Assembly (NCBI GenBank): GCA_037137655.1
Contig: JBAXJX010000002.1
Span: 165,730 to 229,729 of the forward strand
Origin: Candidatus Falkowbacteria bacterium
Lineage (GTDB): Bacteria; Patescibacteriota; Patescibacteriia; Patescibacteriales; UBA12465
Direction: 5' to 3'
DNA: 64,000 nt
Position 1 is the first letter of the stretch; every line of letters begins with the position of its first letter. This document shows, one piece after another, positions 3,231 to 23,211 of the stretch. The notes beneath the pieces were generated by a model. The model saw only the letters and a list, made by a program, of their open reading frames with translations. It was not told the origin of the DNA and ran no database searches. A program made the position numbers and the translations under genes.

Positions 3231-3307
3231 AAGTTTTGTGCCAGTATCTATTTTTATCCATGACTGTATATGTTTTTAAGTTACAATTATTAATTTCTTA
3301 ATTATGA

Positions 3308-3336
3308 AGTTTAGCGAAATTTTAGGTATTTGTCAA
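3308..3336 (-). promoter_or_regulatory. Sigma70-type promoter for the 3003-3230 gene
   Basis: Minus strand reads TTGACA-aatacctaaaatttcgc(17)-TAAACT. It is a near-duplicate of the promoter at 3755-3783. Confidence 0.55.
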
Positions 3337-3368
3337 TAAAAAAGGAAATTATATTGCAAATTTCCTTT
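3335..3368 (-). terminator. Intrinsic terminator of the 3378-3707 gene
   Basis: 9-bp stem aaggaaatt/aatttcctt, followed on the minus strand by TTTTTTAT. Confidence 0.65.
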
Positions 3369-3377
3369 ATGATATTT

Positions 3378-3707
3378 TTAGATGCTCCATTTTTTGAATT
3401 CTTCATCATTATCATCTTCGACAATTCTGACTGAATAAATGGATTTTTGTGTTTCCATAATAAGTATTGTTTTTGTGTCGCATAATTGATTATAGCTAGC
3501 AATAACATTACTGGTAGTGGCTCGACCATCAAATTCTTTTAAATAAAGTGGTCTGCCATATTCTACATCCATGGTTAGGGTTCCGCTTAATTTTTGTCCG
3601 ATTTCAAAGACTGATTTAACTCTGGGTTTTTTCAGTATTTTAGTAAGGACAATTTTGGTACCAGTTTTAATGACGACTTTTCTTTCGTCCTCTAAATTTT
3701 TCTCCAT
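3378..3707 (-). CDS. Small hypothetical protein (paralog of 3003-3230)
   Basis: 109 aa from the ATG at 3707 (MEKNLEDERKVVIKTGTKIVLT...), preceded by an agagagg SD-like sequence. It shares the TGTK(I/L)VLT and YS(V/F)RIV..(D/N)..EF.K motifs with its neighbour. Confidence 0.7.
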   Translation of the reverse strand: MEKNLEDERKVVIKTGTKIVLTKILKKPRVKSVFEIGQKLSGTLTMDVEYGRPLYLKEFDGRATTSNVIASYNQLCDTKTILIMETQKSIYSVRIVEDDNDEEFKKWSI

Positions 3708-15249: not shown

Positions 15250-16233
15250 ATGAAAACAATCGGATTATTTTTTGGTGGACCAAGTAATGAACATGAAGTG
15301 TCAATAAAATCGGCTAAAAATATTGTTAAAAACTTTGATTATAAAAAATTTAATTTAGTTTTAGTTTACTGGGATAAAAAAGGCGTTTTTTATTTACTTA
15401 AAGACATTAATAAATTAAGTGCGGCTAAAAAAAACATCAAGTTGGAAGATTTTAAAAGAAATTTTGATATCGCTTTATTAATGACTCATGGTAAGTATGG
15501 CGAGGATGGTGTTTTGCAGAGCTTATTAGAATCGCAAAAAATTAAATATTGTGGTTGCCGTGCTTTAAGTTCGGCTCTGTGCATGGATAAAGGTTTATTT
15601 AAGCAATATTTATCCGGACAGGGAATTAACCAAGTTAAATTTTTAATATTGGATTACAATTTAGAAACGGCAATAGGTATAGAAGAAAAAATTAATACTA
15701 TCAAAGTAAATTTTAAATTTCCGCTGTATATTAAACCGGCTAATTCCGGATCGTCTGTTGGGGTGAATAAAATTAACAATCTTTCGGAAATAAAAAGCGC
15801 TATAAAGGACGCCTTGAAGCATGATTCTAAAATTATAATTGAAGAGGGTTTGATAAGTCCAAAAGAAATTGAGGTGGCGGTTTTGGGCAATAAGGAATTA
15901 AATATTTCTCAACCCGGCGAATTAAAATTAGCTAAAGATTTTTATAATTATGATGATAAATATAAATTAGGCGAAGCTAAAGTGGTTATTCCAGCGGAAA
16001 TACCCGATAAACAAAAAAAAGATATTTTTGTGTTGGCGGAAAAAATTTATAAACTTTGTGCTTGCTCAGGATTTGCGCGTATAGATTTTTTTGTTGCTAA
16101 TAATAAAGTTTATTTGAACGAAATTAATACTTTGCCTGGTTTTACGGATGCTTCGATGTATCCCATACTTATGATGAATAATGATTTGAGCTATAAAAAG
16201 TTGATAAACAAAATTATTGAATTGGCTTATTAA
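15250..16233 (+). CDS. ddl: D-alanine--D-alanine ligase
   Basis: 327 aa. N-terminus IGLFFGGPSNEHEVSIKSAKNI, ATP-grasp core, and C-terminus LNEINTLPGFT. Confidence 0.93.
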   Translation: MKTIGLFFGGPSNEHEVSIKSAKNIVKNFDYKKFNLVLVYWDKKGVFYLLKDINKLSAAKKNIKLEDFKRNFDIALLMTHGKYGEDGVLQSLLESQKIKYCGCRALSSALCMDKGLFKQYLSGQGINQVKFLILDYNLETAIGIEEKINTIKVNFKFPLYIKPANSGSSVGVNKINNLSEIKSAIKDALKHDSKIIIEEGLISPKEIEVAVLGNKELNISQPGELKLAKDFYNYDDKYKLGEAKVVIPAEIPDKQKKDIFVLAEKIYKLCACSGFARIDFFVANNKVYLNEINTLPGFTDASMYPILMMNNDLSYKKLINKIIELAY

Positions 16234-16242
16234 TAAATGTTT

Positions 16243-16271
16243 AAAAAATCCGCTTAAGGCGGATTTTTTTG
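16243..16271 (+). terminator. Intrinsic terminator after ddl
   Basis: Reads aaaaaatccgc-ttaag-gcggattttttt. Confidence 0.75.
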
Positions 16272-16310
16272 TTTTACTTTAATCTCTTCCGATTCTGAGG
16301 TTCGTCTCAA

Positions 16311-16336
16311 TCGTCATTCCCGCGTAGGCGGGAATC
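16311..16336 (+). repeat. GC-rich palindromic repeat, left flank of the GIY-YIG gene
   Basis: tcgtcattcccgcgtaggcgggaatc contains the hairpin attcccgc-gtag-gcgggaat. It matches 23 of 26 positions of the inverted copy at 16668-16694. Confidence 0.8.
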
Positions 16337-16346
16337 TAGGAGTCCT

Positions 16347-16646
16347 CTAGAATAATGTTTCATATAAATCTCGCCAATAAAAATTGTTTTCCTCTATTAA
16401 TCTCATCTTCCATTTTCGTTGCCACTTTTTCAATTGTTTTTCACGATACAGAGCTCGCCCAATATTACTAAATAACTCATAATAAACCAATTTATCAATA
16501 TTGTATTCGTCTGTAAAACTATTAGTAATTGTTTTGTTCTTATGTTGCGTAATTCGCTTGATTAAATTATTAGTAACTCCAATATAGATTGTGCCATTAT
16601 TTTGACTGGCTAGAATATACACATAATAAGATCTTTCTTTAAACAT
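16347..16646 (-). CDS. GIY-YIG nuclease superfamily protein (UPF0213-like)
   Basis: 99 aa. YYVYILASQNNGTIYIGVTNNLIKRITQHK carries the GIY...YIG motifs plus a conserved R and E (REKQLKKW). Confidence 0.85.
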   Translation of the reverse strand: MFKERSYYVYILASQNNGTIYIGVTNNLIKRITQHKNKTITNSFTDEYNIDKLVYYELFSNIGRALYREKQLKKWQRKWKMRLIEENNFYWRDLYETLF

Positions 16647-17038
16647 AAAAATATATTTAATATTCCTGGATCCCCGCCTACGCGAGGATGACGAGGTTGT
16701 TCATATCCAACTTTAGCTAACCAACGTTTAAACGGCTCAGCTTTAGGTGAGGGAATTGATTGGATGATACGGAAAATACCTTCGGTGTTGGCGCAATTCA
16801 TTTTTTGTTTGCCACCAGCAGTTTTAACTTCAAGGGTACGGACAATTTGTCCATATCCTTTGTTTAATTCTTCATCTCTTTGGAGCATTTTATTTATATA
16901 ATCCTTGGGATTAACCGATTCAGTTAAAACCAAAACAATATCTTCCACTACAAACCACCACTCATTGTTATAAATAACTCGTCGCACTTTTTGGCCATGA
17001 AATATGGCTAATTTGTCTGTTTCCATAATTATATTCAT
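16610..17038 (-). CDS. Bro-N domain protein, 3'-truncated (reading frame runs into the palindromic repeat)
   Basis: KLAIFHGQKVRRV...WWFVVEDIVLVLT...ANTEGIFRIIQSIPSPKAEPFKRWLAKVGYE is a typical Bro-N N-terminal domain. Family similarity stops at about 16700, where the repeat begins. The start may instead be the ATG at 17026. Confidence 0.7.
   Translation of the reverse strand: MNIIMETDKLAIFHGQKVRRVIYNNEWWFVVEDIVLVLTESVNPKDYINKMLQRDEELNKGYGQIVRTLEVKTAGGKQKMNCANTEGIFRIIQSIPSPKAEPFKRWLAKVGYEQPRHPRVGGDPGILNIFLCLKKDLIMCIF
16668..16694 (-). repeat. GC-rich palindromic repeat, right flank of the GIY-YIG gene (inverted copy)
   Basis: The reverse complement is tcgtcatcctcgcgtaggcggggatcc. It is translated as ...QPRHPRVGGDPG... 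at the tail of the Bro-N ORF. Confidence 0.8.
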
Positions 17039-23088: not shown

Positions 23089-23161
23089 GTGCCCATAGCT
23101 CAGGGGTTAGAGCACCGCCCTTATAAGGCGGGGGTCGATGGTTCGAAACCATCTGGGCGCA
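23089..23161 (+). tRNA. tRNA-Ile (anticodon TAT)
   Basis: GTGCCCATAGCTCAGGGGTTAGAGCACCGCCCTTATAAGGCGGGGGTCGATGGTTCGAAACCATCTGGGCGCA. Anticodon stem CCGCC/GGCGG and loop CTTATAA give anticodon UAU. Confidence 0.85.
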
Positions 23162-23211
23162 CAAAGTGTTAAAAAAGTTCTTTTTAAAATATAAATTTAA
23201 AATAAGTGGTC

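Follow-up and report, generated by a model that had tools for sequence, protein, structure and literature searches.

The stretch of DNA analysed here (the window) comprises 64 kb of a ~965-kb, low-GC contig of a Candidatus Falkowbacteria bacterium, a member of the Candidate Phyla Radiation (CPR), and all repeat counts given below cover these 64 kb. Within it, a short open reading frame (ORF) for a GIY-YIG nuclease lies between two inverted hairpin repeats, and this unit is flanked by the two ends of a dinD-like gene with a Bro-N domain. Judged from its sequence, the unit is very probably an NTS-ssnA-NTS cassette of the Ssn family (single-domain GIY-YIG proteins of the cd10448 type) together with its two inverted cognate hairpin repeats, known as NTS or, as a motif, SRM. 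The locus is a new CPR member of an already known, recently described system and not a new kind of element. The window holds one Ssn-type nuclease gene, one Bro-N/dinD fragment and two repeats, and the features of the locus are as follows.

16243..16269, no strand assigned: bidirectional terminator-like hairpin (A-run, stem, T-run), from a terminator scan (12 pairs, then a T-run)
16274..16306, minus strand: dinD-like 3´ remnant, the last 10 codons DEPQNRKRLK and the stop, from a ranking against 63 intact tails
16312..16339, plus strand: left (gene-distal) NTS/SRM hairpin repeat CGTCATTCCCGCGTAGGCGGGAATCTAG, from a regular-expression match to SRM; full arm 16311-16341
16347..16646, minus strand: ssnA-like gene for a 99-aa single-domain GIY-YIG nuclease, apparently intact (Pfam GIY-YIG, 4e-16)
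16666..16693, minus strand: right (gene-proximal) NTS/SRM repeat CGTCATCCTCGCGTAGGCGGGGATCCAG, from a regular-expression match to SRM; full arm 16664-16694
16695..16699, minus strand: 5-nt spacer CAACC between the last homologous host codon and the right repeat, from the junction alignment
16700..17038, minus strand: dinD-like 5´ fragment, codons 1-113, with a complete Bro-N domain (Pfam Bro-N, 7e-17)

The 26-nt core of the left repeat, TCGTCATTCCCGCGTAGGCGGGAATC, is read at 16311-16336, and its inverted copy at 16669-16694 carries 3 mismatches in 26 positions (0 matches in 100 shuffles). The original prediction, made by inspection of the same DNA, had this copy as inverted and identical at 23 of 26 positions, which stands, and had it start one base too early, at 16668. 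A repeat search extends the arms to 31 nt each (16311-16341 and 16664-16694, 87% complementary). As single-stranded DNA (ssDNA), both arms fold into a hairpin of 8 bp with a 4-nt loop; the left arm folds at -8.9 kcal/mol (z -3.65), and the right hairpin is weaker because of one T.G mismatch in its stem. The TCGTC head and the CTAGGA or CCAGGA tail differ in direction between the two arms and, since both are non-palindromic, the copies are truly inverted. Relative to the nuclease gene, the left repeat is on the opposite strand, 7 nt past the stop codon, and the right repeat, which ends 19 nt upstream of the ATG, has its forward reading on the coding strand. The sequence, the repeat search and Pfam thus bear out the earlier description of a 99-aa GIY-YIG ORF (16347-16646) between two inverted repeats that are themselves hairpins.

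GC-rich stem-loops around a small gene in an AT-rich genome could also be ordinary terminators or regulatory stem-loops that happen to stand beside a naturally short Bro-N protein. This has next to no probability: no T-run follows either stem and the scan called no terminator at either arm, the repeats bear the oriented CGTC tag and CYRG tail of NTS, and intact homologs of the Bro-N protein are ~274 aa long. Terminator scan, SRM/NTS match and homolog length together refute it. The possibility, raised in the original prediction, of a generic terminator found everywhere is likewise contradicted, as the two arms are the only copies of the repeat in the window. A scan against Rfam gave nothing above threshold, and hence neither an intron nor a ribozyme. 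Below threshold, both arms (16289-16360 and 16646-16713) weakly resemble RF02748, the Francisella small RNA FtrB (27 and 23 bits; gathering score 66), a model that may contain an NTS-like hairpin.

The Ssn family was first described in 2025 (Chenal et al., 2025, Nat Commun, PMC11893778). Neisseria meningitidis SsnA is a 94-aa single-domain GIY-YIG protein. It binds NTS, a hairpin repeat (CGTCATTCCCGCGMAVGCGGGAATCYRG) that forms a subset of dRS3, solely as ssDNA and cleaves one strand only, a few nucleotides 5´ of NTS. Mutagenesis identified Y6, Y17 and E64 as catalytic residues; in the repeat, GTC before the palindrome is critical for cutting and C after the palindrome for binding. Activity specific for ssDNA was shown for the proteins of N. 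meningitidis, N. elongata, N. wadsworthii and Wolbachia, and the characterised members neither bind nor cut double-stranded DNA (dsDNA). Among homologs across phyla, 71% have at least one SRM and 42% have SRMs on both sides. In Neisseria, SsnA reduces transformation by NTS-bearing DNA; domestication of the NTS-ssnA-NTS cassette was proposed, and mobility of the unit was left as an open hypothesis (all PMC11893778). The same repeats had earlier been classed as "CGTC-tagged REPs" (REP, repetitive extragenic palindrome) without a dedicated enzyme or transposase (Di Nocera et al., 2013, PMC3733652). The original prediction did not recognise this system.

The assignment is made because protein homology, repeat motif, repeat alignment and geometry all match Ssn loci. 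The ORF has a Pfam GIY-YIG match over residues 7-81 and no other domain above cutoff. Ssn membership was defined by E < 1e-10 to N. meningitidis SsnA (PMC11893778), for which the N. gonorrhoeae ortholog served as proxy here. The window protein is 58.6% identical to the gonococcal chromosome in tblastn (E 8e-26, 7.3-Gb collection) and 59% identical over 87 aa to the translated locus in blastp (E 2e-36). The gonococcal matches come from two chromosomes filed as plasmids in PLSDB; the locus, L169, translates as VYILASQRNGTLYIGVT...REKQLKKW...DII, its numbering gives Y6, Y17, E64 and 94 aa as published, and NTS arrays surround its ssnA. Window residues Y10, Y21 and E69 align with Y6, Y17 and E64 of the N. 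meningitidis protein, in columns that are invariant in the family alignment. The window nuclease has 3495 homologs, nearly all of 94-105 aa, among them a 100% identical NCBI protein from a metagenome-assembled genome of Candidatus Falkowbacteria. NCBIfam offers no specific model for it, the sole match being TIGR01453 at a sub-threshold score, and a sequence search of the PDB found no Ssn structure and only a weak match to 1YWL, a UPF0213 GIY-YIG protein. L169 corresponds to NZ_CP119142.1 1880219-1883476, the PLSDB chromosomes being 2.17 Mb each; the start of the gonococcal ssnA (ATGCACGGTTTATATT...) is out of frame with the remaining gene, which may be a pseudogene or use another start.

The published SRM motif, HGTCWYN(0-2)YYVSBRHN(0-5)WNVSBRGN(0-2)RNCYNB, matches the window at 16312-16339 (plus) and 16666-16693 (minus) and nowhere else, where shuffles lead one to expect 0.05 matches. 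The left repeat differs from the Neisseria NTS consensus by one base, both arms align almost base for base with N. gonorrhoeae NTS copies, and the right arm keeps the GTC and the C at the positions critical in N. meningitidis. Both arms consist of CGTC, an 8-bp stem (ATTCCCGC or ATCCTCGC), the 4-nt loop GTAG and the tail CTAG or CCAG, and so have the architecture of CGTC-tagged REPs (tag, 8-9-bp stem from A-T pairs, 4-5-nt loop, short tail). For the geometry, 80 metagenome loci with an Ssn alignment were retrieved, 64 of them evaluable. An SRM within 400 nt in the expected orientation (coding strand upstream or opposite strand downstream) was present in 34 of the 64. For upstream SRMs, 19 loci had the coding strand and 5 the opposite strand; for downstream SRMs, 25 loci had the opposite strand and 3 the coding strand. 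The distance from ssnA is mostly ~30 nt or less, and the window, with 19 nt and 7 nt, has the same layout.

These observations bear on another proposal of the original prediction, a MITE (a miniature transposable element with inverted repeats) that carries a passenger gene. In its general form, the cassette would be a non-autonomous unit moved by an enzyme encoded elsewhere (of the REP-associated tyrosine transposase, IS200/IS605 or IS110-family type), the palindromes being REP- or MITE-like ends. The orientation of the repeats is that of terminal inverted repeats (TIRs), CGTC-tagged REPs are said to "lack a dedicated transposase" (Di Nocera et al., 2013, PMC3733652), and the reference list of Chenal et al. 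(PMC11893778) cites filamentous-phage integration work in Neisseria with regard to dRS3. Yet the repeats are of the kind that the encoded nuclease itself recognises, and this pairing of gene and repeat is kept across phyla (PMC11893778) and seen in the 80 metagenome loci. Moreover, nuclease and hairpin types co-vary across cassettes, there is no target-site duplication and, with no further repeat copy in the window, the GIY-YIG gene is the sole thing bracketed, although no search aimed at transposase genes was made in the window. We consider transport by a foreign enzyme very improbable.

Judged by its homologs, the dinD-like gene of the window is a gene remnant and not an intact family member. 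The Bro-N match covers profile positions 1-92 of 96, so to speak the whole domain. Comparators came from a GTDB scan that yielded 80 loci from many phyla (L005-L084), in 63 of which the gene is intact at 272-283 aa, ~274 being typical. These relatives go on past the tetrapeptide VGYE as ...VGYERVQEIEDPELATKRTR.LYK.KGYS..WIEKRMRGIAIRE..., and the window gene is therefore truncated. A profile hidden Markov model of the 63 intact homologs matches the window ORF at 4e-65 and stops at model position 110 of 274; host homology ends after VGYE (E113, codon 16700-16702), 5 nt short of the right arm. The right repeat thus sits where Bro-N homology stops and the C-terminal half is missing, both as first proposed, and the counter-possibility that such homologs naturally end at VGYE is contradicted by the 63 of 80 loci that continue. 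What is missing is the conserved C-terminal half of the DinD-like protein (~160 aa, ending ...NYLxxPxxxKxL...) save its last 10 residues. A profile search was not sensitive enough for a 3´ gene remnant. When the C-terminal 10-mers of the six-frame translation of the window were scored against the tails of the 63 intact homologs, DEPQNRKRLK ranked first of 3557 (compare ...NYLDEPERKKRLK* in L079). It lies with its stop codon just outside the left arm, on the strand of the Bro-N fragment and directly before the ddl terminator, the hairpin at 16243..16269 being common to the convergent ddl gene (15250-16233, plus) and the end of the remnant.

The cassette is accordingly bordered by codons 1-113 at one end and by the final 10 codons at its other end, with about codons 114-262 (~150 codons) gone. 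Since both ends of a once full-length gene flank it, the event was a replacement or an insertion plus deletion and not a clean insertion. The idea of a small nuclease-carrying insertion that disrupted a gene is right in that the unit is real and interrupts a dinD-like Bro-N gene, and wrong in that ~150 codons have disappeared. As it reads now, the Bro-N ORF spans 16610-17038 (minus) and runs on through the right repeat into ssnA, with a meaningless 29-aa tail to 16610; the protein that spans the junction (P0121) is encoded by 3 contigs, which are listed under NCBI and ENA. Among the GIY-YIG and Bro-N proteins in databases, many (P0005, P0033, P0040, P0071, P0088, P0112, P0115, P0142, P0224) have terminal extensions such as SSPRRRGS, SFPRRRES, LDSRLRGND, LDPRLRGDD, IPAQVGIQ or RHSRESGNP. 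These N- and C-terminal extensions are translated flanking hairpin repeats, produced by read-through in gene calling.

Some homologs of the host gene carry the JGI label "DNA-damage-inducible protein D"; no NCBIfam model matched the Bro-N ORF or its intact dinD-like relatives. Across CPR, Chlorobi, Planctomycetota, Omnitrophota, proteobacteria and archaeal metagenome-assembled genomes (L005-L084), the amino acid identity of the dinD-like Bro-N protein is 64-80%, far above the 44% of PheT between two CPR genomes, and restriction-modification, Fic or diversity-generating retroelement genes often adjoin it, which suggests that the gene travels horizontally. Several members (proteins P0153, P0167, P0221 and P0236, loci L042 and L083) have in-frame deletions without a cassette, from about residue 106-131 to about 183-243, that remove about the same central part as the cassettes replace; these could be excision footprints or natural short forms.

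Further interrupted examples were chosen from truncated family proteins on longer contigs, and the junctions compare as follows.

Window: host ends VGYE; spacer CAACC; hairpin TCGTCATCCTCGCG...
L165: host ends VGYE; spacer CCCGCCAT; hairpin TGTCATTGCGAGCGACCGC...
L171: host ends VGYE; spacer AGCCCTTTTC; hairpin TCGTCATTGCGAGGCTTTGCG...
L170: host ends ...EDPG; spacer of 14 nt; hairpin TGTCATTGCGAGGAGCG...
L001: host ends ...DPELAT; spacer CTCTTGT; hairpin TGTCATTCCCGCGAAGGCGGGAAT...

A GIY-YIG gene follows the hairpin in all five loci; after this gene, L165, L170 and L171 have the hairpin a second time, inverted. L165 and L171 carry different hairpin/GIY-YIG cassettes at a VGYE junction identical to that of the window, the cassettes of L170 and L001 lie 9-13 codons beyond VGYE, and a dinD 3´ remnant is again present beyond the cassette in L171 and L001. 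The three nucleases at the shared junction are 43-52% identical among themselves, and that of the window is nearer to Neisseria SsnA (59%) than to those of L165 or L171; for these reasons the VGYE cassettes represent separate events and not one inherited insertion. Hairpin type co-varies with the nuclease: ATCCCCGCG-type hairpins go with canonical Ssn proteins and ATTGCGAG-type hairpins with a KGGSRKKK subtype.

The L165 locus shares the pheT neighbourhood with the window, their PheT proteins being 44% identical. A single ancestral insertion common to both, as synteny and junction might suggest, was judged unlikely, the two cassettes being non-orthologous. A related reading is that a Bro-N-only stub and an Ssn-type cassette downstream of pheT form an old, vertically inherited arrangement, perhaps a two-gene unit, in which the cassette now serves the host, e.g. 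in the restriction of incoming ssDNA. The distant L165 indeed has the same order, pheT ... Bro-N(1-113) and then GIY-YIG, with the same break after VGYE; the stub retains a complete Bro-N domain in an open frame, ssnA is intact, and domestication of the cassette was proposed by Chenal et al. (PMC11893778). On the other hand, the window and L165 nucleases are only 46% identical, their hairpins and spacers differ, and Neisseria SsnA is the nearer relative of the window protein. Downstream of the cassette, the two loci are unrelated and, as the 3´ remnant shows, the window once had a full-length gene at this place. In L007, a CPR locus syntenic around pheT, the dinD-like gene reads through the cassette site. 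The uninterrupted gene that the original prediction proposed to look for in relatives was thus found in a distant genome, and a close relative with an empty site did not turn up. On balance, we regard inheritance of an old arrangement as unlikely.

L165 has two GIY-YIG cassettes within 1.3 kb: at 1890-2390, directly upstream of the Bro-N stub, it carries a canonical ssnA with flanking head-to-head NTS dimers. A ~100-nt direct repeat (…GGGATTTTTCGCTGAC…GGCGTAAAATCCGCG…AATTGTGACCGGTT) stands at 2409-2510 and 3290-3420, ahead of the Bro-N stub and of the gene that follows it, which has an ORF6N domain, and may be a shared promoter or leader. A general linkage of dinD-like and Ssn genes was considered and rejected, an Ssn-type gene being present within 4 kb in 0 of the 80 GTDB loci.

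Recurrence of cassettes at one place in a gene is also what a free-standing homing endonuclease of the T4 Seg or I-TevI type would produce, by making a dsDNA break in cassette-free dinD-like alleles and being copied in by repair. Three different cassettes at the identical VGYE junction and two more a few codons off would fit, as would a weak NCBIfam match, confined to the GIY motif, to a group I intron endonuclease family (22 bits, where the cutoff is 56). A further point in its favour is a second, different family of GIY-YIG elements inserted cleanly in the same dinD-like gene family. It encodes an 84-aa GIY-YIG protein that is not Ssn-type and is bounded by perfect 12-14-bp TIRs, and both host gene halves are intact around it in the two loci where it was found.

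L002:4517-4812: full second element; TIRs ACCCTGTTAAATAA/TTATTTAACAGGGT; clean insertion at about codon 172 of the dinD-like gene
L166:1250-1349: MITE-like derivative of ~115 nt, internally deleted; TIRs CCCCGTTAGATA/TATCTAACGGGG; clean insertion at about codon 139 of the dinD-like gene

A read-through tail of this second element, PVRYYFQK..., is common to six truncated proteins. No description of bacterial TIR-bounded GIY-YIG elements, or of MITEs derived from them, was found in the literature searched, which is weak negative evidence. For the window cassette, homing is nevertheless improbable. Homing endonucleases are recognised by a joined DNA-binding domain and by cleavage of the duplex allele that lacks the intron or the endonuclease gene; the window protein is a bare 99-aa catalytic domain with no second domain, its match to TIGR01453 is below threshold, and the characterised Ssn members leave dsDNA unbound and uncut (PMC11893778). 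Host sequence was deleted and not precisely interrupted, there is no room for an intron, with no Rfam match above threshold, and none of the 80 loci of the GTDB scan holds a cassette. The intact target region is also without clear likeness to the hairpin site: a disguised NTS around codon 114 was considered, and the consensus of the 63 intact genes, CGAGTGCAGGAAATTGAAGATCCGGAA, is only faintly similar at its ends and was not relied on. The label "homing-endonuclease-like" of the original prediction therefore does not fit in its classical sense.

Against this background, a possible, if tentative, interpretation is that hairpin-flanked single-domain GIY-YIG cassettes (NTS-ssnA-NTS and its siblings with ATTGCGAG hairpins) are mobile elements that act autonomously and represent a new mechanistic class, in which an ssDNA nuclease nicks the outer edges of the hairpins, host repair or recombination completes the process, and landing is preferred in dinD-like genes at or just after VGYE. 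By analogy with the Neisseria and Wolbachia enzymes, the Ssn protein would bind the hairpin in single-stranded DNA only, e.g. during replication, transformation or conjugation, and would place its nick a few nucleotides to the 5´ side of the CGTC tag. As the copies are inverted, the predicted nicks coincide with the cassette's two outer borders, one per strand; on the side of the right repeat, the predicted position is the spacer at 16695..16699. On the 5´ side, where it is read directly, host homology stops 5 nt short of the repeat; on the 3´ side, where it is placed from the 10-codon remnant only, the distance is ~5 nt. Recombination or repair by the host at the hairpin ends would then join the cassette into the dinD-like gene, the central host DNA being lost on arrival or later.

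Hydrolysis of DNA by GIY-YIG enzymes involves no covalent intermediate, and for this reason cut-and-paste transposition is not envisaged. Two nicks in opposite strands alone do not excise a duplex segment, which counts against the proposal; together with the lack of a covalent intermediate it means that any movement must rely on host recombination or repair. The cassette most likely arrived through a recombination or repair event at the hairpin ends. The sequences show the anatomy of the locus, its family membership, the truncated host gene and the return of such junctions in other genomes. We infer enzymatic activity in the Falkowbacterium, on the strength of homologs, and also a role of Ssn in cassette movement and the order of events. 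At present, the cassette may act on ssDNA that bears the repeat, as in Neisseria.

The comparative data suggest that cassettes of this kind are mobile, among them the recurrent junctions and the clean interruption of the same gene family by the second element and its MITE-like derivative. At L129:2930-3361, an Ssn cassette is inverted in situ relative to L116, L136, L137 and L161, which have the same flanking genes, and the switch points lie inside inverted variant SRMs (TGTCATCGCCCGGCTTGACCGGGCGACCCAG). Several other pairs of loci share just the ~420-460-nt cassette.

Several observations weigh against mobility. The marks of an insertion sequence, a target-site duplication and an empty site differing by the element alone, were not seen: the flanks at the borders, ...TCTCAA (left) and GGTTGT... 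(right), show no direct repeat, and the uninterrupted comparators are distant (PheT 42-44% identical). With ~150 host codons missing, the event is not reconstructable, and there are just two repeats in 64 kb. The absence of an Ssn-type gene within 4 kb of any of the 80 GTDB dinD-like loci marks the association as rare, the interrupted examples having been picked from truncated proteins, and clustering of the junctions after Bro-N could partly reflect selection for whole-domain stubs. All members of the syntenic group L116, L136, L137, L161 and L129 have their cassette at the same place, which points to long-term stability and not to frequent movement. Finally, measurements of Ssn activity concern proteins of Neisseria and Wolbachia only (PMC11893778). 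Elsewhere in the window, a tRNA-Ile with the anticodon TAT (UAU) at 23089-23162 represents an uncommon bacterial way to read AUA.

In conclusion, the locus widens the range of the Ssn system to include an ultra-small bacterium of the CPR, whose hairpin is of the Neisseria type and almost unchanged. The 2025 description left open both the role of Ssn outside Neisseria and the mobility of the NTS-ssnA-NTS unit. In the window and four related loci, cassettes lie in the wreck of one conserved gene, with borders where nicking would be expected, and three unrelated cassettes have one junction in common. Together, these observations make the mobility hypothesis testable with defined substrates and a defined target. 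We infer mobility, and the value of the locus is as circumstantial evidence for it and for a preferred target gene. If these cassettes do form an autonomous mobile class, the window would be a natural snapshot of such an event, providing evidence for a mobility that was only hypothesised in 2025. In addition, many metagenome annotations as "Bro-N domain-containing" or GIY-YIG proteins are flagged as hairpin read-through artefacts by tails such as SFPRRRES and DSRLRGND.

Compared with known systems, the cassette has in common with free-standing GIY-YIG homing endonucleases (T4 Seg, I-TevI) the GIY-YIG core, a disrupted or polymorphic host gene and recurrence at a site across genomes. It differs from them in that its protein has no linker or DNA-binding domain and belongs to a family that acts on ssDNA only, in that the gene is flanked by its own recognition hairpins, and in the deletion, instead of precise interruption, of host DNA. 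With the REP-associated tyrosine transposases and IS200/IS605 elements, a likeness also drawn by Chenal et al. (PMC11893778), it shares a small gene between inverted hairpins that are recognised as ssDNA by the gene product, and non-coding copies that can spread or persist elsewhere. Fold and chemistry of Ssn are unrelated to theirs, with hydrolytic nicking in place of a covalent 5´-phosphotyrosine intermediate, and since this intermediate is lacking, strand transfer is not expected from the Ssn protein alone.

The repeats themselves resemble the CGTC-1 family, which corresponds to Neisseria dRS3 (PMC3733652), in the terminal CGTC tag, an 8-bp stem starting with AT, a 4-nt loop, a short unpaired tail and pairing in opposite orientation. 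The CGTC-tagged families of that survey are high-copy and mostly from alpha-proteobacteria, whereas the window has two copies; and where the survey saw no dedicated enzyme, the window copies bracket an enzyme now known to recognise such repeats. The closest relative is the Ssn system itself. Activity there was measured with Neisseria and Wolbachia proteins, and that of the window enzyme is predicted; the two have in common a single-domain GIY-YIG protein of ~94-100 aa, with 59% identity to the Neisseria ortholog and the catalytic Tyr, Tyr and Glu conserved, and an inverted repeat on each side of the gene that keeps the key bases for binding and cutting. The window differs in its host, a group unmentioned in PMC11893778, in having two flanking copies in 64 kb and no visible repeat expansion, and in the position of the cassette inside a disrupted gene, where NTS of N. 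meningitidis are intragenic in only 2% of cases (PMC11893778).

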